Source: Escherichia phage ph0011
Reading direction: 5' to 3' (one strand)
Sequence record: OP557969.1
Length of the DNA stretch: 64,000 nt
The notes below the pieces were generated by a model. That model was not told the DNA's origin. It saw nothing but the letters and a program-made list of their open reading frames with translations, and made no database searches. The position numbers were made by a program, and so were the translations under genes. Each line of letters opens with the position of its first letter. The stretch's first letter is position 1. Of this stretch, positions 1 to 57,947 are shown piece by piece.

Positions 1-3278
<3,278 letters not shown>

Positions 3279-3366
3279 GTAAACCGTCAAAGGAACAATG
3301 AAGTTTCTAAGACAATTGAAGCCAATTAACAAATAACAAAGAAACCCAAAATCAAGGAAGAAATAT

Positions 3367-4425
3367 ATGAAATCTCTAGCTGAAATTCGTGCACACCTAA
3401 AAGCAGAACAAGAAAAAGCAGAAGCACAAAAGAATGGTACATTCACTGGTGAGCGTAAAGCTGATTCGTTTCTAGCTTTCTGGAACGTACCTTACAATGA
3501 ACCACTAAATCTACGTTTTCTACCAGATGCTGATGAGTCCAACCCATTCTTCTGGCGTGAACGTGACATGATTAACCTAACATTCAATGGTGTAGTCGGT
3601 ATGCACACTGATAAAGTAACCGTACAAGTACCTTGTAATGAAATGTGGGTTCCTAAATCTTGTCCGGTACTGAAAGAAGTACGTCAATGGTTCCAAAGTG
3701 CGAATGAAACAGGGAATGAAGAACTAAAAGCAATGGCAGGTCGTTACTGGAAGAAAAAAACCTATCTAATGCAATGCTTTATTGCACCAGATAGTGTTGC
3801 AGTAAAAGACGACATTGCACCAGAAAATCCAATTCGCCGTATTCTAGCTAACAAAGATATCTTTGATAAAGTTAAATCTATCCTACTAAACCCAGGTATC
3901 AAAGAATCCCCAACTCACTACGTTCAAGGTCGTGATTTTGGTATTGTTAAAACTAAGAACGGTGGTGGATATAATAGCTACGACATGTCACAATTCTCCA
4001 TGTCAGAACGTCCACTAAACGAAGAAGAACTAGCAGCAATCGAAAAATATGGTCTATTCAATCTAAATGATTTTATGCCAAAACAACCAACTCCAGAAGA
4101 GTTGAAAGCAATCGAAGAAATGTTCGAAGCATCAGTAAATGGTGAAGCATATGATCCAGCACGTTGGGCATTTGCATATCGTCCAGCGGGTGTACCAAAG
4201 CCTAACACTGGAACTACCACTGTCACTGAATCAAAACCAACTCCTGCTCCAGTACAACAAGAGTCAACACCTGCACCAGTAGCACCTACTGCTCCAGTTA
4301 CACCAGCACCACAAGCTGCTCCTGTAACCCCAGTAGCTACACCAGCAGCATCTACGACTGAAGCACCAAAAGAACAACTATCTGCATCTGCACTAGTTGC
4401 TCGTTTGAAACAACAAGGTAAGTAA
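3367..4425 (+). CDS. 32: Single-stranded DNA-binding protein (T4 gp32-like)
   Basis: RFLP motif and Cys pair (VPCNEMWVPKSCP) resembling the gp32 zinc-binding core; Pro/Ala/Thr/Val-rich repetitive C-terminal region. Confidence 0.65.
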   Translation: MKSLAEIRAHLKAEQEKAEAQKNGTFTGERKADSFLAFWNVPYNEPLNLRFLPDADESNPFFWRERDMINLTFNGVVGMHTDKVTVQVPCNEMWVPKSCPVLKEVRQWFQSANETGNEELKAMAGRYWKKKTYLMQCFIAPDSVAVKDDIAPENPIRRILANKDIFDKVKSILLNPGIKESPTHYVQGRDFGIVKTKNGGGYNSYDMSQFSMSERPLNEEELAAIEKYGLFNLNDFMPKQPTPEELKAIEEMFEASVNGEAYDPARWAFAYRPAGVPKPNTGTTTVTESKPTPAPVQQESTPAPVAPTAPVTPAPQAAPVTPVATPAASTTEAPKEQLSASALVARLKQQGK

Positions 4426-4495: not shown

Positions 4496-5614
4496 ATGAA
4501 AATGACAAGTGGTTTTGCAAACATTCTTAAAAACAGTACTGGTAGTGTTAAAAAGAATACTGGTGTTAGTGTTGGATTTCATGATCCAGATACATGGGTT
4601 AGTACTGGTAACTATGCACTAAATTACCGTATTAGTGGTTATTTTGACCGTGGTATCCCACTGGGTAAAGTAACTATGTTTGCTGGTGAATCAGGTAGTG
4701 GTAAATCTTTTATTGTATCCGGTAACATCGCACGTGAAGCTCAACAACAAGGTATTTTTGTTGTAATGATTGACACAGAGAATGCTTTGGATTCAGATTG
4801 GCTACAAGCTCTTGGTGTTGACACTTCTGAAGAAAAACTTCTTAAAGTTAATATGGGTATGATTGGTGATGTAGCCAAATTCACTTATGAATTTATTGAA
4901 GGATATCGCAAAGAGTACGAAAATACACCTAAAGATGAACGCCAAAAAGTATTGTTCATTATCGATTCGATTGGTATGCTTAATACTGAAGTATCTAATG
5001 ATCAAATGAAAGCTGGTAATCTTAAAGGTGATATGGGTCATAAACCTAAGCAGCTAAAAGCATATATTACTAACTGTGTGAATTCTATTGGTTCACTAAA
5101 TATCGGAATGGTTTGTGTGAACCATTCGTATGAATCACAGGATATGTTTAATCCAGATCCTAAAGTGTCTGGTGGTAGTGGTTTGATTTATGCATCATCA
5201 ATGGTGATTGCAATGGGTAAACTAAAACTAAAAGAAGATGAGGATGGTAATAAAACATCCGATGTGAGTGGTATTCGCTCCAAATGTAAAGTTATGAAAA
5301 CTCGTTATAATAAACCATTCGAGGAAGTTGAGATTAAGATTCCTTGGGATAAAGGTATGGACCCACGTAGTGGTCTACTAGATATGTTTGAAAAATACGG
5401 TCTAATCACTAAATCAGGTAACCGTCTATTGTATGTTGATATTGTAACTGGCGAACAGATTCTAAAATATCGCAAAGAGTGGATGCGTAATGAAGATTCA
5501 TGTCTTGATTTGGTAATGCATCAATTTAAAAATCATCCTTTGATTGAAGAAGTTAAAGAAGAAGAAAAAGGTGATGAAACTTTTGGTACTGATGTTGATA
5601 TTAGTGAGGAATAA
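4496..5614 (+). CDS. uvsX: UvsX recombinase (RecA-like)
   Basis: Walker A GESGSGKS, Walker B-like VLFIIDSIG, and C-terminal SGLLDM block matching T4 UvsX. Confidence 0.8.
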   Translation: MKMTSGFANILKNSTGSVKKNTGVSVGFHDPDTWVSTGNYALNYRISGYFDRGIPLGKVTMFAGESGSGKSFIVSGNIAREAQQQGIFVVMIDTENALDSDWLQALGVDTSEEKLLKVNMGMIGDVAKFTYEFIEGYRKEYENTPKDERQKVLFIIDSIGMLNTEVSNDQMKAGNLKGDMGHKPKQLKAYITNCVNSIGSLNIGMVCVNHSYESQDMFNPDPKVSGGSGLIYASSMVIAMGKLKLKEDEDGNKTSDVSGIRSKCKVMKTRYNKPFEEVEIKIPWDKGMDPRSGLLDMFEKYGLITKSGNRLLYVDIVTGEQILKYRKEWMRNEDSCLDLVMHQFKNHPLIEEVKEEEKGDETFGTDVDISEE

Positions 5615-6075
5615 TGAAACCTTGGCATTGGATTATCAAAGATGATAAATCTAAAATTATTGAAATGATTGAGTTCTTTAACAAAGAAATTGAAGAGGCT
5701 CGTCGTGAAGTAAAGAAGATTGGCATCATTGAAAAAATTGCTCAAGAGATTCCTGGCTGGCATGAGACGCGTCTAAGCCAGCTTCAAGAACTTGAAGCAG
5801 TATTGGAAATGTTAGAAATTGAAATGCGTCAGATACAAGCCGAGAAGTTCAAATACTTTCTCGAAGGATACCGCCGTGCACTATCTTCATCTGACTGTAA
5901 AAAGTATGTTGAAGGTGATAAAGATGTTTGTGAGTTAGCAGAACTTATAAACGAGGTATCTTATATAAGAAATACATATTCCAGTATTGTTAAATCCTTA
6001 GAGATGAAAGCTTTTCAGTTAAACAATATTGTGAGACTACGTGCCGCTGGTATCGAGGATGCACGTTTAGAATAA
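5614..6075 (+). CDS. Hypothetical coiled-coil protein (153 aa); possible recombination mediator by position only
   Basis: Start overlaps the uvsX stop (TAATG); no motif recognised. Confidence 0.5.
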   Translation: MKPWHWIIKDDKSKIIEMIEFFNKEIEEARREVKKIGIIEKIAQEIPGWHETRLSQLQELEAVLEMLEIEMRQIQAEKFKYFLEGYRRALSSSDCKKYVEGDKDVCELAELINEVSYIRNTYSSIVKSLEMKAFQLNNIVRLRAAGIEDARLE

Positions 6076-6083
6076 TTATCATT

Positions 6084-6108
6084 AAGGACGCATATCGCGT
6101 CCTTTTTC
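6084..6108 (+). terminator. Rho-independent terminator
   Basis: aggacgc / gcgtcct stem followed by ttttt. Confidence 0.6.
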
Positions 6109-6125
6109 TATGTGAGATTAAAAAA

Positions 6126-6944
6126 ATGACAAAATTAAATGAATTCTTATCAAATATAGCAGTTCTTGATACTGAAACCACTGGCGTTGAAAGTGATGAT
6201 GATATTATTGAATTTAGTATCTCATATCCATATACTTCACATGAAAACATTGATACTATTGATAACTATACATTGCGATATAAACCACTGAAAGATATTC
6301 CACCAGAAGCATCGGCTGTTCACTTTATCAGTACTGAGGATGTAGCTAATTGTGTTGGGTATAAAGATGATTTAGATAACATAGATGCACTTATGGGATG
6401 CCGTAAGTATTTTGTTGGTCATAATGTACAATTTGACCGTAGAATGATGGTAGATAATGAATATAAATATCGTAACTCAGTTTCACAGTACTTACTCGAT
6501 GAAGATAAATGGATTTGTACTCTTCGTTTGGCTAAGAAAATGTTTGCAGAAGATACCGAATATAAAAACTTAACTCTAAGTTATTTGTGGTATAAGTTTG
6601 GATGCCATCGAGATGTTCACAGACCTATTAATGCTCACGCGGCAAAAGATGATGTATTCATGTGTTATCAGGTTCTAATCAAATTGGTTGAAATTGCCAT
6701 CGAACGTGGTCATATTGATTCCAATGGGGATATTGGTGAACAAATAGTAGCTTTTTGTAACACCCCAATGCGTTATCAATTCATGCCATTTGGTAAACAT
6801 AAAGGTGAGCCAATGAATACAGTACCATTGAATTACATTGAATGGATGATCACTAATAGTGACATTTTAGATGCAAGTAACCCTAACTGTGATAAAGATT
6901 TAGTATATACATTTGAGTACGAATATAATACTCGAACTAATTAA
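6126..6944 (+). CDS. DnaQ-like 3'-5' exonuclease (DEDDh family) with C-terminal extension
   Basis: Exo I LDTETTG, Exo II HNVQFD, Exo III HAAKDD. Confidence 0.6.
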   Translation: MTKLNEFLSNIAVLDTETTGVESDDDIIEFSISYPYTSHENIDTIDNYTLRYKPLKDIPPEASAVHFISTEDVANCVGYKDDLDNIDALMGCRKYFVGHNVQFDRRMMVDNEYKYRNSVSQYLLDEDKWICTLRLAKKMFAEDTEYKNLTLSYLWYKFGCHRDVHRPINAHAAKDDVFMCYQVLIKLVEIAIERGHIDSNGDIGEQIVAFCNTPMRYQFMPFGKHKGEPMNTVPLNYIEWMITNSDILDASNPNCDKDLVYTFEYEYNTRTN

Positions 6945-6959
6945 CAAAGGTAATCATGG

Positions 6960-9539
6960 ATGAAAATTTGTAAGTTAACTTTATTGGATGAGGTGAATTG
7001 TAAATTTGAGGGACTAGATCCCTCAATTCGACAAAAGATGATTCGTGCAACTGAATATGTGCTACCATATGCAAAGTTTACACCAGCAGGTCGTATTGGG
7101 CGTTGGGATGGTAAAGTACAATTCATGAACTTAGGTGGAAGCACATACTTTCATATGCTTGATAAACTTTTACCTATTCTTGACGAAGCTAATATTGATA
7201 TTGAATTAGAAGATCATAGACTAAATTACGGTTTCGAATTTGAACCAATTGATGAAAATATTTTTAGCGATGTTGTTTTTGGTCCTGGACACCACATGGA
7301 AGGTAAAAGTATTATCCTACGTGAACATCAGGTAAATGCAGTAAATTCGTGTTTAGCTAACCCACATGGGTTGGTTCTGGCAGCAACTGGTGCAGGAAAA
7401 GCCCAGCCACTTGATGAACCAGTTCTTACCATTAATGGATGGAAACGAATGGGTGACATAAAAGTTGGCGATATAGTAAAATGTCCTGATGGAACAAATG
7501 CTCCCGTCCTTGGTGTATATCCACAGGGAATTAAACCAACAGTACGAATGACATTCTCGGATGGACGAAGTGTCGAATGTTGTGATGAACATTTATGGAA
7601 TATATATAGTATTGCTGGTGAAAAAAACCCTGAAAAACGATGGAGAAACCTTTCTGTTAAAGAAATCATTGAATTACAAAATAAACAAAAACGTCCAGTA
7701 TATATTAAAACAATCACTGGTGATATTTTTGAAGAAAAAGAATTACCAATACATCCATATATTTTAGGTGTATTACTCGGTGATGGATGTTTAAGAAATG
7801 GTAATATAATGTTATCAAGTTCAGATGAATTTGTTATTGATAAGGTATCTTCATTATTACCTGATGGTTATATTATCAAGAAAAAACAATCATCAAAATA
7901 TGATTATAGTATTGTCATGGATGATACAAAAAAGAAAGAATATTTATGTAAAAATAATAAAGAAAGATATAACGAACTTAGGGTTATTTTGGAAGAACTT
8001 GGAATTTATAATAAGTATTCATATGAAAAGTTTATCCCTGAAATTTACAAAATGTCATCAATTGAACAACGTCTGCAACTCATTCAAGGATTAATTGACA
8101 CGGATGGTTATGTTGATAAAAGATTAAAAAACGGAAAGTCCCGAAATGTGGTGGAATTTTGTAGTACATCAGAAAAATTGGTTGATGATTTGAAAGATAT
8201 AATGAATAGTTTAGGTGGTTACGGTATTAAAAAATCTAAACAAACTTATTATACCTATGCAGGGGTAAAACAAAAAGGTCGCCCAAGTTTTAAAATGAGA
8301 ATTGATTATAATAATCTTAATGCCTTGGCTAGTTTACCTCGCAAAAAAGACTTTTTATATTCAGAAAGAAATCGTGTTGAAAATAAACTAAAAATTGAAA
8401 AAATTGAATATATTGAAGATAAAGAATGTCAATGTATCTATATTGATCATCCAGAACATCTATATATTACCAGAGATTATATCGTAACACACAATACAAT
8501 TATTTGTGCTGCTTTGGCGAAATCGGTACAAAAATATGGACGTTCTGTTATCATTGTCCCCAGCACTGACCTAGTACAACAAACATATGATGATTACATT
8601 ATGTGTGGATTAGATGCTGGTATGTTCTATGGTGCACAGAAAGATTTTGGTCATCAACATACTATTACTACTTGGCAATCATTTAACTCTCTATGGAAGA
8701 AAACCAAAAAAGGTGAAATTGAATTAACAGAACAAGACGTAAATGATTTTATTGATGGGGTAGTTTGTGTTATAGTTGATGAGTGTCAAGGTGCTGGTGG
8801 TGATGCATTAGTTCAAGTACTATCTAAAGTTATGAACAACGTACCATTGCGTTGGGGTCTTACTGGTACAATTCCGAAAGATCCGGTTGTTGCAGCGAAA
8901 ATCAAATGTAATGTTGGTGATGTTATATATAAAATCACTGCAAAGGAATTACAAGATAAAAAGATACTAAGTACATGTAATGTGAATTGCATTAAACTAA
9001 AAAGTAGTATGAAGTTTGCATCATATGCTGAAGAGTTGAAATACTTAGTAACTGACAGAGATAGAATGGCATATGTAGCGTCATTGATATCTGCGTTATC
9101 TGAATCAGGAAACACTTTAGTTTTAGTAGATAGACTTGAAGCAGGTGAGTTGCTATGTGAATTTTTAGGCATTCCCAAATCAGAATTCGTTCGTGGAGAA
9201 ACTAAAAAGAAAGATCGAGAATCATCTTATGGTGAAATTCGTTGGGCTGATAATAAAATACTTATTGCGACATACGGCGTTGCCAGTACTGGTATCAGTA
9301 TTTCAAGGCTATACAATGTAGTATTGATTGAACCTGGAAAAAGTTTCGTAAGAACTATACAATCAATCGGACGTGGATTACGCCGTGCTGAAGACAAAGA
9401 CCATGTTGAAATATATGACATTAGTGGTTCTAATAAGTATAGTGCAAAGCATTTACGTGAGCGTCTCGCTTACTATAAGGAAGCACAATATCCTCATACA
9501 GTAATAGACGTTAAAGATTGGGAAAACACAGCGGGATAA
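6960..9539 (+). CDS. uvsW: UvsW-like SF2 helicase interrupted by an in-frame intein
   Basis: Extein motifs: Walker A ATGAGK|T split by the intein, DECQ box, GLTGT, QSIGRGLRR (motif VI). Confidence 0.7.
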   Translation: MKICKLTLLDEVNCKFEGLDPSIRQKMIRATEYVLPYAKFTPAGRIGRWDGKVQFMNLGGSTYFHMLDKLLPILDEANIDIELEDHRLNYGFEFEPIDENIFSDVVFGPGHHMEGKSIILREHQVNAVNSCLANPHGLVLAATGAGKAQPLDEPVLTINGWKRMGDIKVGDIVKCPDGTNAPVLGVYPQGIKPTVRMTFSDGRSVECCDEHLWNIYSIAGEKNPEKRWRNLSVKEIIELQNKQKRPVYIKTITGDIFEEKELPIHPYILGVLLGDGCLRNGNIMLSSSDEFVIDKVSSLLPDGYIIKKKQSSKYDYSIVMDDTKKKEYLCKNNKERYNELRVILEELGIYNKYSYEKFIPEIYKMSSIEQRLQLIQGLIDTDGYVDKRLKNGKSRNVVEFCSTSEKLVDDLKDIMNSLGGYGIKKSKQTYYTYAGVKQKGRPSFKMRIDYNNLNALASLPRKKDFLYSERNRVENKLKIEKIEYIEDKECQCIYIDHPEHLYITRDYIVTHNTIICAALAKSVQKYGRSVIIVPSTDLVQQTYDDYIMCGLDAGMFYGAQKDFGHQHTITTWQSFNSLWKKTKKGEIELTEQDVNDFIDGVVCVIVDECQGAGGDALVQVLSKVMNNVPLRWGLTGTIPKDPVVAAKIKCNVGDVIYKITAKELQDKKILSTCNVNCIKLKSSMKFASYAEELKYLVTDRDRMAYVASLISALSESGNTLVLVDRLEAGELLCEFLGIPKSEFVRGETKKKDRESSYGEIRWADNKILIATYGVASTGISISRLYNVVLIEPGKSFVRTIQSIGRGLRRAEDKDHVEIYDISGSNKYSAKHLRERLAYYKEAQYPHTVIDVKDWENTAG
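7401..8495 (+). mobile_element. Intein (365 aa) with LAGLIDADG homing-endonuclease domain inside the helicase P-loop
   Basis: Begins right after GAGK; LAGLIDADG-like LLGDGCL and LIDTDGYVD; ends IVTHN (N at 8493-8495) followed by extein T; length is a multiple of 3. Confidence 0.75.
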
Positions 9540-13350: not shown

Positions 13351-13392
13351 ATTAGTTCCATAAATATTAGTATAAATTTATACCTATTATTT

Positions 13393-14385
13393 ATGGAAGG
13401 AAAAACTATGGCTCATCACGGCGTGTTTATGTACCCTTATAATCAGGAAGTATCATTGGGCAATTTTAATATGCCATATAGCAATGAAAAACTAACTATA
13501 TATAAAGGGGCAAATAATAATTTATCTTTTACTGTTCACAACGCTGATGGAAAGTATACTTTATTGAAAGAAAATGAATATCTTACATTTATGATTTTTG
13601 ATGTACGAAATAATACTAAACTATTTGATGTTGTTTTGGAAAAACAAGAACCAAGTTGGCTATCCGAAAGCGGTCAGGCCCGACAAACATTGGGAAATAA
13701 AAAGAAAGTATATTATGGATGTATTGTTCCAGCAGGTGTTATCCAAGATACCAGTCCTGGTTCCAAATATAGATGGAGTATCACTAAAGTAACAATGGAC
13801 GGTTCACTTGTAGAACCAACGCAATATCTATATACAGGTATGAACTATGAAGCATCAGCAGAGTTAATTATTTCAGACCAAGCTGTACCTGTATTTGTCC
13901 CTAGTACTGAAATATCTGTCAACCAAAATTCTGCATGGACGACTATTAAGCGTTTATATCATGAGCCTATTGGTAATGGTATGATTGGGGAATATGATAT
14001 TCTTGCATCAACACCCCTCCCTGCACAAATGCAGTTTGGATTGGTTGATGGATTGAGTAGTATAGCAATCTATTTTGATAAATTTATTGGTAGGATACAG
14101 CTTCAAGGGTGTTTGTGTAATGACGTACCAAATGATAATGAAAACTATAAATGGTTTATTATTAAATTAGATGGAAAGGATTATATTGAAAATGGGGTGG
14201 ATGTGGAAGGATTTCCAGAAGAACTCGATGGAATTGAAGCATTTAATTTTAAAGGAAATTATATGTGGTTAAGAATTGTAGTAGCTATTCATCCTAAAAC
14301 TGTTCCAGTACCATATGACTATGCTGCTGTGAGAAAAGTGTATGACCCTTTCTTAACTGTACCTAAAATTTTGATTCGCAGGTGA
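13393..14385 (+). CDS. Hypothetical protein (about 330 aa)
   Basis: ORF; in-frame ATGs at 13393 and 13408, the latter preceded by GGAAGG. Confidence 0.55.
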   Translation: MEGKTMAHHGVFMYPYNQEVSLGNFNMPYSNEKLTIYKGANNNLSFTVHNADGKYTLLKENEYLTFMIFDVRNNTKLFDVVLEKQEPSWLSESGQARQTLGNKKKVYYGCIVPAGVIQDTSPGSKYRWSITKVTMDGSLVEPTQYLYTGMNYEASAELIISDQAVPVFVPSTEISVNQNSAWTTIKRLYHEPIGNGMIGEYDILASTPLPAQMQFGLVDGLSSIAIYFDKFIGRIQLQGCLCNDVPNDNENYKWFIIKLDGKDYIENGVDVEGFPEELDGIEAFNFKGNYMWLRIVVAIHPKTVPVPYDYAAVRKVYDPFLTVPKILIRR

Positions 14386-19089: not shown

Positions 19090-19760
19090 ATTACGAATAT
19101 GATCAACAATCCGTTAATCAGATGGCAGATTTATTAAGTGGTCTTAATGATATTGAAGCTGGTGAAACACATAATGCCGCAGGTGTTCCATATAAAGCAA
19201 GTGGTGATATTGGTGCAATGACTGCAATTTTAACTTCATTAAATGAAGCTGGAATGGATTACGGTACTGATCCAGAGAAGATTCATCCGAACGTTGTGCC
19301 ATACAATGCACCATTCAATGAACACATGAATGGACAACAATCTACCATTCAGCCATATAGTCAACCATCTAAGCCGAAAACTAATTGGAGCTTAGTAGAA
19401 GAAAAAGTTCAAGGAACTAAATCTACCAAAGTGTATAGTATCAAGTGTAATCATAGTTCACAGATTATTATGAATAATATTATGATGTATGAAGCTGCAC
19501 TTACATTAGTTAATCTTTTGAATGAAGGACGAATGTTGACAGATGCAAAACTCCTTGGTATAATTAGTTCTGGATTACAATACACAAATGTAATCAGTGA
19601 GGCATTAAAAGCTGCTCAAAGGCGACAACGTGTTCTTAATGAATCAAAGTATGATGAAGCAAAAGAATTAGATATAATTATTGCAGAAAAGAAAGCAGAA
19701 GCTTATAAATTGAAAGAGCGTGTATTGAACTTTCTTAAAAATGAAGGGTATATTACCTGA
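19086..19760 (+). CDS. Hypothetical protein (224 aa)
   Basis: ORF with ATGA overlap. Confidence 0.5.
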   Translation: MNYEYDQQSVNQMADLLSGLNDIEAGETHNAAGVPYKASGDIGAMTAILTSLNEAGMDYGTDPEKIHPNVVPYNAPFNEHMNGQQSTIQPYSQPSKPKTNWSLVEEKVQGTKSTKVYSIKCNHSSQIIMNNIMMYEAALTLVNLLNEGRMLTDAKLLGIISSGLQYTNVISEALKAAQRRQRVLNESKYDEAKELDIIIAEKKAEAYKLKERVLNFLKNEGYIT

Positions 19761-34467: not shown

Positions 34468-34662
34468 ATGACTAACAAAACATTTTATGATCGTATTATT
34501 GAAGACAAGGGAGTTTTTGATAAGGTAGTTTATGACTTAGAACTTATGATCAAAGACGCACCGAATCCAAGAGTACGAACCCAAGCAGAGTTTGCAAAAA
34601 CTTATCTTGTTCAAGTACAAGCAATTTGTGAAGCAATCAAAAAACATAATGATAGTGCTTGA
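34468..34662 (+). CDS. Hypothetical small protein (64 aa)
   Basis: ORF. Confidence 0.4.
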   Translation: MTNKTFYDRIIEDKGVFDKVVYDLELMIKDAPNPRVRTQAEFAKTYLVQVQAICEAIKKHNDSA

Positions 34663-34688
34663 CAGAACAAAAGTTCTATCCTATAATT
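34659..34688 (+). promoter_or_regulatory. Sigma70-like promoter (TTGACA-N18-TATAAT) upstream of the IF3-like gene
   Basis: ttgaca 34659-34664; tataat 34683-34688. Confidence 0.45.
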
Positions 34689-49575: not shown

Positions 49576-50390
49576 GAATTTTAAATATGCTTAAATCTCT
49601 TCACGAAACGACGAAATTGGTTCAGGATGAAAAATATCGTCGAAGTATTACAAAAGATTTAGCATGTCGAATGTATATGCGTAGATTCGAAATTTCTCGA
49701 ATTGGTAAAAAATGGGATAATATAAATCGTGAAGACATTGACCCAGATGCTATTTTTAAAGCATACATGGCAAGAAAAGTTTTCATAAATGAAAAAACTT
49801 TTTATATAGATAGTGATAGAGTTCTAGAAGATAAATTCACTAAAGGTTTATGGAATATATGGTGTATTGAAATATTTGGAGAAGTTCTCCCTGAACCACC
49901 TGTTCCTAAAACGTATAAAGAATTAAAAAATATTTTTGATAATGAACACATACATTCAAACTTCTCATTATATGACACTGTATCAGAAGCTGTATTTTAT
50001 GGTGAGTTGCATGGTCATAACAAATATTTTGATAGTATGGTTAGTTTTGATTTGTTTTGCCACTTACCAGGTGTGTCTAGCTGGACCAGTGATCAACACC
50101 GAGCTAGTAAGGTTGATAAACGTAAATTCTCTGCTCAAAGATTTATGCAAGTTGCAATGAGTATGTATAAACTTGATTATCTTGGTTGTCCAGAACCATA
50201 TACTCATTTCTGGAAAGAAAAAGCACAAAAATGCTTAAACTACTGTATAGTTCGTTTGATGGACACATACATTCTTAAGTTTAGGAATGCAACAGTATAT
50301 GACATGCCAGAACCACCAGAGAATGAAAAGTATCCACCAGTCAAAACATTTGTATGGTACAGGGATAAAAGTAACAAAAGGATGCACTAA
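49572..50390 (+). CDS. Hypothetical protein (272 aa)
   Basis: ORF with ATGA overlap. Confidence 0.5.
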   Translation: MRILNMLKSLHETTKLVQDEKYRRSITKDLACRMYMRRFEISRIGKKWDNINREDIDPDAIFKAYMARKVFINEKTFYIDSDRVLEDKFTKGLWNIWCIEIFGEVLPEPPVPKTYKELKNIFDNEHIHSNFSLYDTVSEAVFYGELHGHNKYFDSMVSFDLFCHLPGVSSWTSDQHRASKVDKRKFSAQRFMQVAMSMYKLDYLGCPEPYTHFWKEKAQKCLNYCIVRLMDTYILKFRNATVYDMPEPPENEKYPPVKTFVWYRDKSNKRMH

Positions 50391-50408
50391 TGTGTATCCT
50401 TTTTTCGT
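50379..50408 (+). terminator. Terminator hairpin overlapping the stop codon
   Basis: aggatgcac-taat-gtgtatcct (one G-U pair) followed by tttttt. Confidence 0.5.
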
Positions 50409-50486
50409 TTCATGTATTGACATATGGTGTACCAGTATGTATAATACCCACGTTATTTAAATTTTAATTGATTACGAGGTTTTATA

Positions 50487-51614
50487 ATGAAAGGTAAATA
50501 TTTTTTTGTTGAAAATGGGAAAGAAGTCGAAATTCAAGAATTCAACTATAATTATGTACTGAACTCTTTATTAAAACAATATGACCGTTCATCAAACAAA
50601 AAATACATTTACAATGTGATTGTACGCCGTACTTATGATTCGTTAGGTAATCCATCATTCGATGTAAAATCATTGTCATTGGATGAAATCTATTTTGATA
50701 ATAGACGCTTAAATGTATTTGATTTAATGAAAGATAAAATTCATTTTAGTAATGTTAGAATTGACCCTAACATGCCAGTACCACCATTGGAGCGTGAGTA
50801 TCGTGAATGGAAAGAAGGTCGTGCAAAACCGCGTCTGGATTTGGTAAAAACATCACCCGACGTTCCTGCACCTATTGTTCTTAAGAAAAAACCAATCAGC
50901 CCAGACGATACCCGAATTAAGGATATTGAATGTGTTGTTGAATTCCCAGATACTATTGAAAAGAACCCAGTCAAAGTGTTAGATTGGTTTATCAACTTAC
51001 CAGTTTGTGCACAAGAAATTGGAACTAAGATTCAACAAGTTTCAGAACGACAACTGGAACTCAGTTCTGCATTACAACAGCATAGTGATTATATCAGAAT
51101 GCTCATGGATAACTTAACAGTAGCTTTGGAAACCTTGTTCCCACTGAAACCGACATTCACCCAGAAATTATTTGGTAAAACTGATATCAAAGTACAACCG
51201 TCTGATTTACCAAAAGTGATGAAAAAACTCAATGAAGCTGTAAAGTATGATACCAACAAGTTTAGTGGTTTAAATTCTATGTTTTCTGAAATCAGAAAAG
51301 AAGTTAACGAAATCAAAAATGAACTTGAATATGGTAAGTTGGGCTGTGAATACGCACTATGCAGTGTGGATGATGCATTTGAATATGAATTAACATTAGA
51401 ACGTATTATGAAAATGAGCATTACCACGTCTATGACAGAAACAAGTATTATTGCTACAAACAAACAATATCAAGTTGATATGAATCGTATGATTGACATT
51501 CAAACTATCACTATTCCTTTGATTATCAATCGTTTACAGTCACAGGTAGGTAAGGCAGTAGATACAAGTACTGTTGAGATTATTCGCAACCTTGCATATG
51601 GTAACAAAGAATAA
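50487..51614 (+). CDS. Hypothetical protein (375 aa)
   Basis: ORF. Confidence 0.55.
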   Translation: MKGKYFFVENGKEVEIQEFNYNYVLNSLLKQYDRSSNKKYIYNVIVRRTYDSLGNPSFDVKSLSLDEIYFDNRRLNVFDLMKDKIHFSNVRIDPNMPVPPLEREYREWKEGRAKPRLDLVKTSPDVPAPIVLKKKPISPDDTRIKDIECVVEFPDTIEKNPVKVLDWFINLPVCAQEIGTKIQQVSERQLELSSALQQHSDYIRMLMDNLTVALETLFPLKPTFTQKLFGKTDIKVQPSDLPKVMKKLNEAVKYDTNKFSGLNSMFSEIRKEVNEIKNELEYGKLGCEYALCSVDDAFEYELTLERIMKMSITTSMTETSIIATNKQYQVDMNRMIDIQTITIPLIINRLQSQVGKAVDTSTVEIIRNLAYGNKE

Positions 51615-51623
51615 AAAAAACAC

Positions 51624-51652
51624 TTGACTTGGATATGTGCTGAACGTATAAT
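51624..51652 (+). promoter_or_regulatory. Near-consensus sigma70 promoter TTGACT-N17-TATAAT
   Basis: ttgact 51624-51629; tataat 51647-51652; overlapping dyad gtgctg ... cagcac. Confidence 0.6.
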
Positions 51653-51700: not shown

Positions 51701-52837
51701 ATGGCAGAGAAAGAAATCAATCCAAAAAAATCGTCAACAGTCACTAAAAACACCAAACGTTCTTCCAAAACTGCGACGAAGGGTCACACAATTGATGCAA
51801 GTGATATTTTCAACCAAACAACAAAGTCACTCCCAGTTCTAAAAGATGTAAAGGGTAATACCATGTCACTAACAGTTCAAAACATCAACACTGTTGGTAC
51901 AACTGCTGGTGCGGCGGTTGGTCGTTTGGCTGATGAAATTATGTCTAAGGTTAACGTAACCGATGACAATACCGAGTTTGGTAAATCAATCACTACAATT
52001 CTCACATTGACCCGTGCGGTTGATATTGATAGTCTTCAGGAAGATAAATCAATTGTTGGTCGCATTAAGAAATTCTTTGTTAATGCCCAACAGAAAGTTG
52101 GCGATCAATACAAAAATAGTAAAGAACAAATTGATGAAATTATGAAAACTCTACAAACTGGCATCAATCGCCAACATGGAGAGTGTGAGTGGCTTGATAA
52201 AGCATATAATGAAAACAAAGAATATTTGTTCGAATTACGTGATACATTAGTTGGTTTAGAAGAAGTAACTAAAGCACAAGATGCAGTACTGGCAGAAATG
52301 CAAGCAAACAAAGATGTGGACTCTTTTGCTATTCAAGAACAAAAGATGATTTGTGAAGCACTTTCTAAGCAAGAAGACAAGATTCGCCGACTTATCATGA
52401 TGTGTGAACTGAGTGGTCCACGATTGATGAGTATGAAAAAAGTAAACTTAAACACTGTTTCTAAGTTTGAAGATTTGAAATCAGTAGTAATTCCCGCATG
52501 GAAATCGCAATTGGCTGAACAGCTAATCTCTGAGCGTCAACGTAAGGATAATGAATTGGGAAATCTAATTGACAATGAAACAAATCGTTTATTAGAGACT
52601 AACTCTAAGATGGTTGCAGCTAATATGCTGGATGCTGCAAAGGCAAACAATCGTGGTATTGTGGATATTAAAACCTTGCGTAATGTACATAAAACAATGA
52701 TTGACAGCATTGAAGCTGTTATTGAAGAAGAGAAAAAAGGTAAAATGGAACGTGAACGTGCGAAACAAGAAATCGCACAACTTTCACACGAACTCGAAGA
52801 CACACTTCGTGAAATTGCAGAAAAAGCTAACAAGTAA
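51701..52837 (+). CDS. Hypothetical coiled-coil protein (378 aa)
   Basis: ORF with GAGGAA RBS; helical and charged throughout. Confidence 0.55.
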   Translation: MAEKEINPKKSSTVTKNTKRSSKTATKGHTIDASDIFNQTTKSLPVLKDVKGNTMSLTVQNINTVGTTAGAAVGRLADEIMSKVNVTDDNTEFGKSITTILTLTRAVDIDSLQEDKSIVGRIKKFFVNAQQKVGDQYKNSKEQIDEIMKTLQTGINRQHGECEWLDKAYNENKEYLFELRDTLVGLEEVTKAQDAVLAEMQANKDVDSFAIQEQKMICEALSKQEDKIRRLIMMCELSGPRLMSMKKVNLNTVSKFEDLKSVVIPAWKSQLAEQLISERQRKDNELGNLIDNETNRLLETNSKMVAANMLDAAKANNRGIVDIKTLRNVHKTMIDSIEAVIEEEKKGKMERERAKQEIAQLSHELEDTLREIAEKANK

Positions 52838-52850
52838 TAGTTGACACATG

Positions 52851-52898
52851 GGTGCGTTTTTCAATATAATATTATTATTGAAAACGCACTCTTTTTAA
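52851..52898 (+). terminator. Long hairpin / terminator
   Basis: gtgcgtttttcaat ... attgaaaacgcac with AT-rich loop, followed by tcttttt. Confidence 0.5.
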
Positions 52899-52922: not shown

Positions 52923-53612
52923 ATGAAGCGTAGGCATATTAGTGTTGATATTGAGTCTCTTGGTACTCCTGAAAATTCAGGATATGATATTATTATTCCA
53001 AATTACGCAGCAGTTGTTGTTCCAAATAAACCTGAAAATGATATCAGGAATTTTATATATGTTAAGTTGCCATACCAAGCACAAGTTAACGCTGGACTGA
53101 AATCAGATTCAGGTGCAATGGATTTCTGGATGAATACGTGTCAGAAAGAATATCCTAATGCATATGCAGAAGTTGCCAGTACTATGACTCTTCGTGCACC
53201 AGAATTGTACGGACCTAATGGTAAATCCAAACAAATCTTTACATCTAATAGTATTGTCGATTTCTGGAAAGATATCCGTTATGATATCTATGGTAAAGAG
53301 GTTGAACATTCAATTTGGGGAAATGGTTGTAACTTCGACTGTAGTATTTTACAAGCTAATCACTTAAAACTATTGAATGTTGGTGATTTATGGAAATATG
53401 ATGCACCAGAAAATGCACGAACATTAAAACGTTTATTGAATGAAGATGCTCGTACCGAAATGGATGAGATTGTGTCAGTGCAGTTAGCTAAATTCGTGAA
53501 GTATGCAGAACAATGTGGTATTAATGGTTTGGAATTACATCACCCTCTGTATGATGCAGCACGTGAAGCTATCCAAATCTCCTACTGTCTCAATAAACTT
53601 AAACTGGACTAA
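52923..53612 (+). CDS. dexA: DEDDh 3'-5' exonuclease (T4 DexA-like)
   Basis: Exo I ISVDIESLG; C-terminal HHPLYDA (H-x4-D). Confidence 0.5.
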   Translation: MKRRHISVDIESLGTPENSGYDIIIPNYAAVVVPNKPENDIRNFIYVKLPYQAQVNAGLKSDSGAMDFWMNTCQKEYPNAYAEVASTMTLRAPELYGPNGKSKQIFTSNSIVDFWKDIRYDIYGKEVEHSIWGNGCNFDCSILQANHLKLLNVGDLWKYDAPENARTLKRLLNEDARTEMDEIVSVQLAKFVKYAEQCGINGLELHHPLYDAAREAIQISYCLNKLKLD

Positions 53613-53615
53613 TAC

Positions 53616-54710
53616 ATGAATTTTATTATTCTGTTGATTCCTTCACTTATCGTTGTATTTGTTATGAAATACATGTATGATAAGCATATCAGTACTAAAG
53701 AACTGTTGATTCATATTGGTTGTTGTATAGTTGGGGCTGCTCTTGTGCTTGGTATCTCATATGCAATCAACTACAGCCAATTGTACGATGTAGAGATTCT
53801 AAATGGGCAGGTAACATCCAAATATAATCACAAGGAGTTTTGTACACAATCAAGCTCATGTAAGCATTACACGTGGCACGAGAAATGCAGAACTCGTTAT
53901 GATAGTAAGGGGAAATCCCATCGTGAATGTGAGTCCTATAAGGTATTTGATTATTCATACGAAGTTGACTGGTATGTAAAAAGTACTGTAGGGAAGTTTG
54001 AGATTGAGCGAGTAAACCGTCAGGGTACAATGACCCCTCCACGCTGGCAACAGGTTAACATTGGGGATTATGCTGCCGCAGAAAGTTCTTATATTAACTA
54101 TCTGTTCGCTGATAAAAACTCATTGTTTAGTCCTGATGAATTACATGAAATGTATGATGAGAAATATCTTAGTTCTTTACCAGAATATCCAAGTATTAAT
54201 GATTATTACATAACACATCATGTTATTAACAAAACAAATTATAATGTATATGGATATGAAGAATATTTACGTAACGTTTTGAAAACTATGGGTTCACGTA
54301 AAGAAGTCAATATCTTAGTTATTGTATACAATTATAAAGACAGTGATTTTGTTGATGCTACCTTAGCAAAGTGGCGTGGTGGTAAGAAGAATGATGTTAT
54401 TATGTTCTTTGGTATTGATGGTGATGGTAATATTATTAAATTTAACAGCACATCATTTGCCCAGGGAATGAAAAATGAAGGATTACATGCAAAGATGCGT
54501 ATGGACGCATTAAATGAAAAATTAACGATTGACTTATTAGCAATAGAAGTGCATAATATTGATACACAGTTCGTGAGACTCTCTAATAAAGAGTTTGAGT
54601 ACTTGTCTATTAAAATGGAACCACGCAAAGATGTTCTCATCGGTGCTTCTATTTTATTACTAATTATTTCTATTTTTATTGGCCTTTATATGAGGGATAA
54701 CGAATTATGA
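53616..54710 (+). CDS. Hypothetical membrane protein (N- and C-terminal hydrophobic segments)
   Basis: Hydrophobic N-terminus IILLIPSLIVVFV and C-terminus LIGASILLLIISIFIGLY. Confidence 0.55.
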   Translation: MNFIILLIPSLIVVFVMKYMYDKHISTKELLIHIGCCIVGAALVLGISYAINYSQLYDVEILNGQVTSKYNHKEFCTQSSSCKHYTWHEKCRTRYDSKGKSHRECESYKVFDYSYEVDWYVKSTVGKFEIERVNRQGTMTPPRWQQVNIGDYAAAESSYINYLFADKNSLFSPDELHEMYDEKYLSSLPEYPSINDYYITHHVINKTNYNVYGYEEYLRNVLKTMGSRKEVNILVIVYNYKDSDFVDATLAKWRGGKKNDVIMFFGIDGDGNIIKFNSTSFAQGMKNEGLHAKMRMDALNEKLTIDLLAIEVHNIDTQFVRLSNKEFEYLSIKMEPRKDVLIGASILLLIISIFIGLYMRDNEL

Positions 54711-55261
54711 ATGGTAAAGTTTTTGCATTAATTGGTATTATTGTTGTATTTGGTCTTATGGTAATTGGGTCTATTAGCATGTATGTAGGAACATATGATC
54801 GTGCGGTGGAATTTGAAGGTAATATTCAAAAGTATTACGATGCTTCAGAAAGTCAATTAAGTACTTATACCCTTACAATCCAAGAAAAGGTTCAAGTATC
54901 AGATAAGTATAAAGATGCATTGAAAGAAACAATTGAATCGTATTTCAAAGGACGTGAAGGTGTTGACCAGAAATTTGTAATGTCACAGATTCAACAGCAG
55001 GTTCCAAATCTTGATCCTAAAATTTACCAGGAGCTTATGGTAACAATTGAATCAGGACGTACAAAGTTCAACAATCTTCAAAAAATGAAAATCGACCAAT
55101 GTACAGAATATTCCAAATTCCGCAAAGGATTCTGGAATTCCAAAATTCTTGATGTTAACACGTTTCCAAGTGAAAATATTGCACATCTTTGCACGGTAGT
55201 ATCAGATACCCGCACAAAGAAAGCAATGGATACTGGTATTCAAGAAGTAATTAAACTATAA
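54707..55261 (+). CDS. Membrane-anchored protein, possibly LemA-like
   Basis: N-terminal TM helix then helical soluble domain with FPSEN; resemblance to the LemA family is tentative. Confidence 0.35.
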   Translation: MNGKVFALIGIIVVFGLMVIGSISMYVGTYDRAVEFEGNIQKYYDASESQLSTYTLTIQEKVQVSDKYKDALKETIESYFKGREGVDQKFVMSQIQQQVPNLDPKIYQELMVTIESGRTKFNNLQKMKIDQCTEYSKFRKGFWNSKILDVNTFPSENIAHLCTVVSDTRTKKAMDTGIQEVIKL

Positions 55262-55310
55262 TCTAAATCTGGGAGTACAAAACGTACTCCCATTTTCTAT
55301 AGGGTTTATT

Positions 55311-55883
55311 ATGTTTTTAAAAAATACTTATGAATTAATTAAAATGCTTCAAAATATGAATTCTGGTGGTCTATTTCCGTATCATTCAGAGGATAAAACA
55401 CATCGTTTAGTTTTGAAATTGGATGAAACTGGACGTATTGCATCACTAAGAACGGTTATTCCCAATATGGAGCAAGTAATCACACAAACAACTCCGAAGT
55501 CAGGCACTGCTGTTAATACACCACAAACATATAATCCACAGATATATACTATTAGTTCTCCACCTATTACACGAGTTGCCTGTATTGTGAATATAAAAGT
55601 ATCTAAGGACTATCGTGACTTAATATCAGTTGAATGGTCAGAAATAACATCATCATTGGTAGCAAATGGGTTTGTAGTAACAAATACAGGTCTAGCACAA
55701 AATGTGAAAGAAGGACAGCAGATCATGAGTGCATTGTATATTAGTAATGGTTGTGTTATCATCAATGGCAAGTTGTATAGAGATACTGAACCTGATGCAT
55801 TCACTGAAGATTTGGTTGGTGAAAAAGAATACAGCATTCTGGAAATTATGAATTTGAAAAAGGTATATGAAAACGGTGTTTAG
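55311..55883 (+). CDS. Hypothetical protein (190 aa)
   Basis: ORF. Confidence 0.5.
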   Translation: MFLKNTYELIKMLQNMNSGGLFPYHSEDKTHRLVLKLDETGRIASLRTVIPNMEQVITQTTPKSGTAVNTPQTYNPQIYTISSPPITRVACIVNIKVSKDYRDLISVEWSEITSSLVANGFVVTNTGLAQNVKEGQQIMSALYISNGCVIINGKLYRDTEPDAFTEDLVGEKEYSILEIMNLKKVYENGV

Positions 55884-56450: not shown

Positions 56451-56801
56451 ATGCTAATATATTTAAGTGTGCTTGTTTTTTCGTTACTGTTGTCACTGAT
56501 TATTTTAAAAATTATTGCTATTGTTCGAAGTAAGATTGATTGTTCTGAAACTGGTTCAGTTATTGACTTGGTTCTTGATTATCCAAAGCGATGTGGTGTT
56601 ATTGTGTTAATTGTTCTCCTTATGAATACATACATCGTCAGAGAACATTTATATAATATGTATGATTGTAGTGTTCGTTCATTTTCACAAGGTGTGGACA
56701 CGGACTATAGTTGGTACTATAAGAAATGTCGATTTAAAAACCAACACGGTATTTGGGTTGATTTTGATAAATTACGTGGAACCCCTACTGGAGAAGAATA
56801 A
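56451..56801 (+). CDS. Hypothetical membrane protein (116 aa)
   Basis: Two hydrophobic segments. Confidence 0.45.
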   Translation: MLIYLSVLVFSLLLSLIILKIIAIVRSKIDCSETGSVIDLVLDYPKRCGVIVLIVLLMNTYIVREHLYNMYDCSVRSFSQGVDTDYSWYYKKCRFKNQHGIWVDFDKLRGTPTGEE

Positions 56802-57566: not shown

Positions 57567-57783
57567 TTCATATAATATGGAAGATTTACTAATACCATCC
57601 GAGAACAGTACTGTTAAGATGCAAATGTATTGGTTAGTAAAAGATGGTAAAGTATTTCAACACAAAGTTACAAAAGTATGGCAATGTAACAAAAACAAGT
57701 CAATAGTTGATACACTAGCAACTGCATTTCCAGGGGTGGAGGTTGTATTTTTACCAGTTGCTTATATTAAGGAAATAAAATGA
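57547..57783 (+). CDS. Hypothetical protein
   Basis: ATG at 57547 preceded by GGAG. Confidence 0.45.
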   Translation: MNEKIFNSYNMEDLLIPSENSTVKMQMYWLVKDGKVFQHKVTKVWQCNKNKSIVDTLATAFPGVEVVFLPVAYIKEIK

Positions 57784-57947
57784 AAAAAACATGGACAATA
57801 TTCGTAATACCTATTATAATGTTGTTATTGGTAATCACGGTTCCACAAGTATACGTTGTTGCTTTGAATGTGGTGGAAATTATTCTTCTTGTAATTCATT
57901 GCCTTGTGTGTTATTACTACGTAAAATGGGATGATAAAAAAATATGA
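57780..57947 (+). CDS. Small membrane protein (55 aa) absent from the ORF track
   Basis: ATGA overlaps at both ends link it to the neighbours; hydrophobic core IFVIPIIMLLLVITVPQVYVVALNVVEIILLVI. Confidence 0.4.
   Translation: MKKTWTIFVIPIIMLLLVITVPQVYVVALNVVEIILLVIHCLVCYYYVKWDDKKI

Follow-up and report, generated by a model that had tools for sequence, protein, structure and literature searches.

A LemA-TPM-like gene pair encoding predicted inner-membrane proteins in Escherichia phage ph0011 and other large phages

Bacterial LemA-TPM modules and a phage gene pair

LemA and TPM proteins occur widely in bacteria, and chloroplasts and invertebrates also have TPM proteins, with no agreed biochemical function for either family. 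Some TPM members are reported to bind metals or to have phosphatase activity. The TPM domain consists of a central four-stranded β-sheet flanked by four amphipathic helices and is variable in sequence, and the proteins that contain it are described as accessory, fitness-conferring factors for which there is no consensus biochemical function (bioRxiv 10.1101/2024.10.28.620569). Here, we describe two adjacent genes, A and B, in a 64,000-nucleotide stretch of Escherichia phage ph0011 (OP557969.1), hereafter the window. By curated criteria, the pair belongs to neither Pfam family; by homology and gene context, it resembles the LemA-TPM module of bacteria. We lean toward the view that A and B constitute a phage LemA-TPM-like envelope module, a periplasm-facing inner-membrane pair that supports or remodels the host envelope.

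In bacteria, one or two TPM (DUF477) genes come directly after lemA at Legionella, Leptospira, and Burkholderia loci, the examples being a Legionella adelaidensis plasmid, Leptospira noguchii p3, and Burkholderia vietnamiensis pBVIE02. Among the seven bacterial loci sampled, lemA lies beside TPM genes in three and within two genes of one in a fourth. On a Lactobacillus plasmid, the TPM gene is located two genes upstream of lemA, and at other bacterial loci lemA is paired with DUF2207 or DUF3137 membrane proteins. Canonical LemA genes are present on 46- to 49-kb Clostridioides difficile plasmids, and in a Lactobacillus gasseri plasmid region (L013), canonical LemA is accompanied by phage-like genes and has a TPM gene close by. 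Mobile elements of Gram-positive bacteria therefore also carry bona fide LemA.

The window derives from a Rak2/121Q-like jumbo phage of Escherichia coli with approximately 85 to 90% DNA identity to phAPEC6, 121Q, vB_Ec-M-J, and Turkey3. Gene A (positions 53616 to 54710, plus strand) starts with ATG and encodes a 364-amino-acid protein, predicted to be an inner-membrane protein with three transmembrane (TM) segments, a cysteine-rich β domain, and a TPM-fold domain. Gene B (54707 to 55261, plus strand) also starts with ATG and encodes 184 amino acids, predicted to form a single-pass membrane protein with a helical LemA-like domain. At the junction, AATTATGAATGG, the ATG of B shares bases with the TGA of A (ATGA). 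An earlier note, made from the sequence of the window alone, had proposed two open reading frames (ORFs) of these lengths with this overlap, and their exact coordinates were recovered. Relative to phage JP4, the ratio of nonsynonymous to synonymous substitution rates (dN/dS) is 0.055 for A and 0.074 for B; relative to RaK2, that of B is 0.17. Both genes are under strong purifying selection and are therefore real genes rather than chance ORFs.

As in the bacterial lemA-TPM operons, A and B are same-strand neighbors, and both proteins are predicted to be extracytoplasmic. The order differs: in bacteria, lemA comes first, with one or two TPM genes behind it, and in the phage, a single TPM-like gene precedes the LemA-like gene. 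A relationship between A and the other LemA partners, DUF2207 and DUF3137, was ruled out, since none was detected by hhalign. Given this result and the adjacency of lemA and TPM genes in bacteria, the phage pair therefore appears to be the counterpart of the LemA-TPM module in inverted order. The pair does not amount to a new kind of system; at least three GenBank deposits (RPN242, Turkey3, and fEgEco12) already label B as LemA.

B and LemA (PF04011; 2ETD from Thermotoga maritima) share one N-terminal TM helix followed by a helical domain of about 150 amino acids, and the bona fide LemA proteins that were fetched (186 to 230 amino acids) have the layout of B. The two families also share the C-terminal pattern E-x-x-P-x-L ... 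R ... Y ... P, and the genes of both adjoin a gene for a TPM-type membrane protein, the TPM fold of A being a prediction. Unlike LemA, B falls below Pfam detection, lacks both the RRxDLIPNL motif and an inter-helix segment of about 25 residues, is encoded downstream rather than upstream of its partner, and is carried by lytic phages. A resembles the LemA-linked bacterial TPM proteins in the predicted succession of an extracytoplasmic TPM domain and a C-terminal anchor (TM helix at amino acids 338 to 361, with a K/R bias). It differs from TPM proteins (PF04536, formerly DUF477: TLP18.3, Psb32, MOLO-1, and BA41/BA42) in that it has no significant sequence match to them and in that it contains an extra N-terminal TM hairpin and a cysteine-rich β domain of about 100 amino acids without a known fold match. 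It also lacks a glycine-rich C-terminal tail: the bacterial LemA-linked partners end in GGGGxxGGGGASGxW-type sequences, whereas A ends in ...YMRDNEL.

Family-level relationships of B and A

B contains one hydrophobic segment by the Kyte-Doolittle scale (amino acids 5 to 23; 54719 to 54775, plus strand; hydropathy, 2.85), and the AlphaFold2 model has a helix at the same place. This agrees with the single-pass topology assigned to B in the earlier note. The model is all-helical, with a predicted local distance difference test (pLDDT) score of 73. B belongs to phrog_1383 (E = 2e-65), which is labeled "virion structural protein." The same note had described B as weakly LemA-like. Pfam did not return this likeness for B alone, and it was recovered with a profile of the diverse B family.

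None of the 33 close relatives of B had a Pfam LemA match, and profiles of close homologs returned no matches among PDB sequences. The B family comprised 218 matches in a word-indexed search and, at an E value of ≤0.001, 1,365 cluster representatives (50% clusters). For comparison, 2ETD and seven sequences from annotated plasmids, eight bona fide LemA proteins in all, were aligned. A narrow B profile matched this alignment at 94.1% in hhalign (E = 1.2e-7), and reversed-sequence controls gave 0.3 to 0.4%; when the TM helix was trimmed, the match was 55% (control, 0.2%). A diverse profile built from 137 representatives matched at 97.25% (E = 2.8e-11) over 138 columns. The LemA-aligned region of B, defined by hhalign and HMMER, covers approximately amino acids 27 to 155 (54785 to 55171, plus strand); the hhalign match spans query amino acids 19 to 155 and LemA positions 12 to 176, and the HMMER alignment extends over residues 9 to 154 of 2etd.

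When the diverse profile was searched against all PDB sequences, 2etd_A, "lemA protein," was found with an E value of 8.3e-6, and the next match had an E value of 0.35. In a per-member Pfam scan of the representatives, LemA was matched more often than any other family (23/137; best E = 6.5e-6). On distant jumbo-phage contigs, the A homolog is followed by a gene for a protein of 188 to 198 amino acids, and hhalign comparisons with the B profile gave 98.5% and 99.3%. Pfam LemA was the sole match for two of four such proteins, in the same register (E = 5e-4 and 4.5e-3), with scores of 17.3 and 20.3 bits, under the gathering score of 26.2 bits; B itself does not reach that score for PF04011. Because of the family-level profile, PDB, and per-member Pfam tests, B can be placed, as far as sequence comparison allows, in a divergent branch of the LemA superfamily that is carried by phages. 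Matches of B to Spore_III_AF, COG3_C, and similar families were dismissed as weak chance matches to a helical protein. Some Joint Genome Institute (JGI) records name B homologs "PulG," and there are weak N_methyl matches; a prepilin identity was ruled out, as these reflect the hydrophobic N terminus alone.

The layout of A was derived from a Kyte-Doolittle scan and an AlphaFold2 model made with 69 homologs as input (pLDDT, 90; predicted template modeling score, 0.78). Hydrophobic segments were found at amino acids 3 to 21, 30 to 48, and 340 to 358, with model helices at the same sites, and three TM segments are present in 60 of the 69 family members. Hydrophobic termini had been noted earlier for A; the N terminus proved to consist of a TM hairpin, not of one segment, and the predicted TM helices now number three in A and one in B. 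In the model, this hairpin (53622 to 53759, plus strand; helices at amino acids 2 to 20 and 27 to 54, joined by a short K/R-rich loop) is followed by a β-rich domain (amino acids 57 to 160; 53784 to 54095, plus strand), an α/β domain (approximately amino acids 203 to 318; 54222 to 54569, plus strand), a short helix, and a C-terminal TM anchor (amino acids 338 to 361; 54627 to 54698, plus strand) with a short K/R-rich tail. The β-rich domain contains the conserved residues C76, C82, C91, and C105, with four to six conserved cysteines across the family, and returned no known fold or sequence match in structure and PDB searches.

A had no significant Pfam, NCBIfam, or PADLOC match, including to TPM_phosphatase (PF04536), and belongs to phrog_2087, which is labeled "unknown function." Its α/β domain, in the predicted model, has the four-stranded sheet and four flanking helices that define the TPM fold, and matches of the model to TPM-fold proteins include photosystem II (PSII) repair/assembly factors and a subunit of the mycobacterial CIII2CIV2 supercomplex. 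The most conserved motif of the family, W-x-G-G-K-K-N-D-V, lies within this domain and aligns with the W-x-G-x-K-x-N-N-G-V segment of TPM proteins. TPM_phosphatase was also the commonest sub-threshold Pfam family among relatives of A (7/69; best E = 0.0016). Residues ~203 to 318 are thus modeled as a TPM-like domain, with weak support from sequence, which would give PHROG 2087 its first structural assignment. Of the two profiles, LemA and TPM, neither was matched by the window proteins, and both were matched by some of their relatives, mostly below threshold.

Topology, expression, and conservation of the pair

The predicted orientation of both proteins follows from their charge distribution. 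In the A family, the N terminus is one or two residues long, the loop between TM1 and TM2 has a mean length of 9 amino acids with 1.9 K/R, and the C-terminal tail has a mean of 2.6 K/R. Because this loop and tail are K/R rich, the large loop of A is predicted to be periplasmic, and its conserved cysteines fit an oxidizing compartment. B is predicted to be N-in/C-out, since the mean net charge in its family is +1.35 at the N terminus and −0.53 after the TM segment. In Leptospira and Burkholderia LemA, a cysteine directly follows the hydrophobic leader (...NCGYN and ...AGCGYN), and these lipoprotein-like N termini place LemA outside the cytoplasm. From these features, we infer that the soluble domains of A and B face the periplasm and are anchored in the host inner membrane.

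A and B are preceded by a gene for an Rv2179c-like 3′-5′ exoribonuclease of 229 amino acids (52923 to 53612, plus strand; PF16473, E = 1.7e-8, above threshold; PHROG 255, "exonuclease," E = 3e-33), which is separated from the start of A by only 3 nucleotides (nt). Upstream of it is a sigma-70 consensus promoter, TTGACA-N18-TATAAT, that matches at 12 of 12 positions (52841 to 52870, plus strand) and whose −35 element and context are conserved in JP4. A terminator scan placed an intrinsic terminator, with a 9-bp G+C-rich stem, a 5-nt loop, and a T-run, 9 nt past the stop codon of B (55270 to 55299, plus strand). The hairpin and T-run are kept in JP4 and in RaK2, where the stem differs and is still paired. 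The promoter, the exoribonuclease gene, A, B, and the terminator probably form a compact three-gene unit that would be transcribed early by the host RNA polymerase. A and B are probably early because a host-type sigma-70 promoter heads the unit and a conserved terminator closes it.

Small inner-membrane proteins with periplasmic parts are known from phages, and T4 Imm/Sp and the Rz-type i-spanins resemble the pair in this respect. No sequence or profile relationship between the pair and either of them was found; the pair is far more widely conserved than is typical of such systems and has no o-spanin partner. A role in lysis control, with the pair acting as holin and antiholin or with B acting as an i-spanin-like coiled-coil that sets lysis timing, would be in keeping with the predicted architecture of B, a type II single-pass protein with a helical periplasmic domain within a membrane pair; the likeness to i-spanins is architectural only. 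In RefSeq, the gene of the A homolog Vi01_203 (L015 2843 to 3952) is labeled "host lysis protein," a label without traceable evidence, and the product is nonetheless named "conserved uncharacterised protein." The surroundings of the pair speak against such a role. No lipobox ORF of ≥25 amino acids was found among all plus-strand starts in 53500 to 55450, in or next to B, and this is why the pair is said to have no o-spanin partner; no endolysin gene adjoins A-B, and the promoter is an early promoter of host type. Moreover, homology searches pointed toward LemA and TPM rather than holin or spanin families, and in other phages the neighbors of A-B are nucleotide or NAD (nicotinamide adenine dinucleotide) metabolism genes rather than lysis or structural genes. 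We therefore consider lysis control highly improbable.

The pair was found well beyond the Rak2-like phages. In tblastn searches, 479 phage records contained A and 482 contained B, and the genus counts of the two agreed. Divergent LemA-like/TPM-like pairs thus occur in approximately 480 sequenced phages of at least five unrelated lineages, including Rak2-like phages, Ackermannviridae, ICP1, Aeh1-like phages, and Xanthomonas and Sinorhizobium phages. A directly precedes B in all lineages examined (Rak2-like phages, a 500-kb JGI contig, Xanthomonas phage BUDD, two metagenomic contigs, ICP1, Vi01, RPN242, Aeh1, RaK2, and LIMEstone1), and throughout these widely differing large lytic phages, all with Gram-negative hosts, the two genes overlap or nearly abut. 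For ICP1, Vi01, RPN242, Aeh1, and the two metagenomic contigs, the ORF upstream of B matched the A profile with E values of 1e-73 to 1e-136; in the remaining lineages, the A homolog was the search match itself or was named in the record. In a single predicted protein of 553 amino acids (P0302), an A-family region (amino acids 1 to 356) is joined to a B-family region (amino acids 371 to 552), and the linker falls where the topology model puts the cytoplasm. This protein, a single predicted ORF, may be either a genuine fusion or a frameshift or assembly artifact. A B homolog with 39.7% identity, as in Salmonella Kuttervirus phages, is present in a 111-kb record labeled "Enterococcus phage Efm 3-10" (OR844942.1), which suggests a mislabeled host or a contaminating Ackermannviridae contig.

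In the records examined, A is named "hypothetical," and B is named "hypothetical," "virion structural protein," or "LemA." The second of these names for B, given by PHROG 1383, also stands on Vi01_204, Aeh1p306, and many pharokka-style records, and it would make B, and perhaps A, a packaged component, e.g., a membrane-inserting ejection protein. By mass spectrometry, phage ViI reportedly has 41 virion proteins (PMC3296691), and that data set may be the origin of the label. In LIMEstone1, mass spectrometry detected 39 virion proteins, and neither homolog (ORF194 or ORF195) is one of them; RaK2 ORF174 and ORF175 are annotated as hypothetical only. Both genes are located away from structural modules and follow a sigma-70 consensus promoter, their homologs are cellular envelope proteins, and membrane proteins such as rIIB also appear at trace levels in virion preparations. 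Packaging of B or A therefore seems very unlikely, and the propagated label, which is itself weakly supported, would stand corrected.

Superinfection exclusion is a further reading, in which the pair, expressed early, would block DNA entry or periplasmic steps of secondary phages, as T4 Imm/Sp do. The earlier note had argued in general terms that coupled membrane pairs of phages often act in exclusion or lysis timing. Early expression, suggested by the consensus promoter, and predicted inner-membrane anchoring with periplasmic domains, which is the right place for such a function, would agree with exclusion. On the other hand, the strict synteny extends across very different lineages with different receptors and tails, whereas known exclusion genes are usually small and lineage specific. 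In bacteria, the homologs are envelope genes of chromosomes or plasmids rather than defense genes, and the window proteins had neither a PADLOC match nor visible homology to Imm/Sp. Exclusion thus appears quite unlikely as the function of the pair. Of the earlier interpretation, the LemA likeness holds at the family level, and exclusion and lysis are left as weaker rivals.

A proposed role in host envelope support and the genomic context of the pair

Compared with a role in lysis or in the virion, which is less likely, an envelope role of the LemA-TPM-like module is in better accord with these observations. A and B would form a heteromeric complex anchored in the host inner membrane, made early by means of the host-type sigma-70 promoter. 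The complex would act on the periplasmic face, where it may stabilize or remodel host membrane machinery during infection. By analogy with TPM accessory factors of membrane energy-transducing complexes, its role would be auxiliary envelope maintenance. We favor envelope support because TPM-fold proteins serve as accessory factors, as in PSII repair/assembly and as a respiratory supercomplex subunit; because lemA and a TPM gene are jointly upregulated when the envelope of Flavobacterium is stressed (PMC13236525); and because a gene for a TelA stress-type protein lies close by in this phage. The deep conservation of the pair across unrelated phages also argues against a lineage-specific weapon and for a role in general physiology. 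Strict conservation, translational coupling, and strong purifying selection imply that the module is generally useful at the host inner membrane in lytic infection.

Several results weigh against this reading. LemA matches to B were absent in Pfam, NCBIfam, and PADLOC even at an E value of ≤1, and the hallmark RRxDLIPNL, of which R47, L50, P52, and L54 are invariant in the LemA sample, is missing from the phage family, where the consensus at this position is N-x-N-x-L-S-x-Y-x-x-K-V. Fold searches with the B model returned generic helical bundles and did not retrieve 2etd, the four-helix bundle of LemA. When the A family was compared with bacterial TPM sequences by hhalign, as an alignment and singly, the matches were not significant (≤2.8%), and for this reason the TPM assignment rests on the predicted fold and weak hidden Markov model matches. 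Complex formation, topology, and early timing are predictions, and the PHROG/RefSeq label "virion structural protein" for B could reflect a real detection in virions of phage ViI. Finally, literature searches found neither a functional study of nor a paper on the phage A-B pair.

A broader reading of the envelope module holds that A-B represents an unrecognized class of genes with an auxiliary role in envelope maintenance, widely conserved among the large lytic phages that infect Gram-negative bacteria. We regard this extension as unlikely. Under it, an early, periplasm-facing TPM/LemA complex would keep or rewire the energy-transducing or envelope machinery of the host inner membrane. ICP1, Kuttervirus, and Aeh1-like phages are genetically tractable, so that a deletion phenotype could inform both phage biology and the bacterial module. 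If the broader reading is true, ICP1 or Kuttervirus would offer the first clean genetic handle on LemA-TPM modules in any organism.

The promoter of the unit is one of four perfect TTGACA-N17/18-TATAAT sequences found in the window by a pattern scan (19536 to 19564, 34659 to 34687, 50417 to 50445, and 52841 to 52870), all on the plus strand. The expected number is 0.24, and none of 100 shuffles reached 4. These four promoters likely mark early transcription units of the host RNA polymerase. An imperfect palindrome, GTGCGTTTTTCAATA...TATTGAAAACGCAC, followed by TCTTTTT, is located at 52852 to 52896, overlaps the −10 element of the promoter of the unit, and is conserved in JP4; it could terminate telA, serve as an operator, or form a hairpin at the 5′ end of the next transcript. 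In deposited records, the exoribonuclease is variously named peptidase, metallopeptidase, exonuclease, or DNA polymerase III epsilon.

Upstream of the unit is the gene for TelA ("toxic anion resistance"; 51701 to 52837, plus strand; PF05816, E = 2e-38), which has its own promoter matching at 11 of 12 positions (51624 to 51652). It is preceded by a gene for a 375-amino-acid protein (50487 to 51614, plus strand; phrog_13312), located behind the perfect promoter at 50417 to 50445 and a terminator at 50376 to 50403. TelA adjoins the A-B unit in Rak2-like phages only. As an obligatory third component it was rejected, since none of the eight A-B loci inspected from other groups has a TelA-type gene in the stretches covered.

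In distant phages, A-B is located among genes for NAD synthase, nicotinamide mononucleotide (NMN) adenylyltransferase-NUDIX, NAMPT, and phosphoribosyl pyrophosphate (PRPP) synthetase. The NAD+/PRPP genes near A-B are at 3060 to 3989 and 13384 to 13896 in locus L003, at 5283 to 7948 and 9869 to 12871 in L004, and at 6325 to 7380 in L017, and this neighborhood may be only a shared early metabolic region. Downstream of the unit, the window encodes further small proteins predicted to be membrane bound, one of 116 amino acids with two hydrophobic segments (56451 to 56801; phrog_8041) and one from a hydrophobic ORF of 55 amino acids (57780 to 57947).

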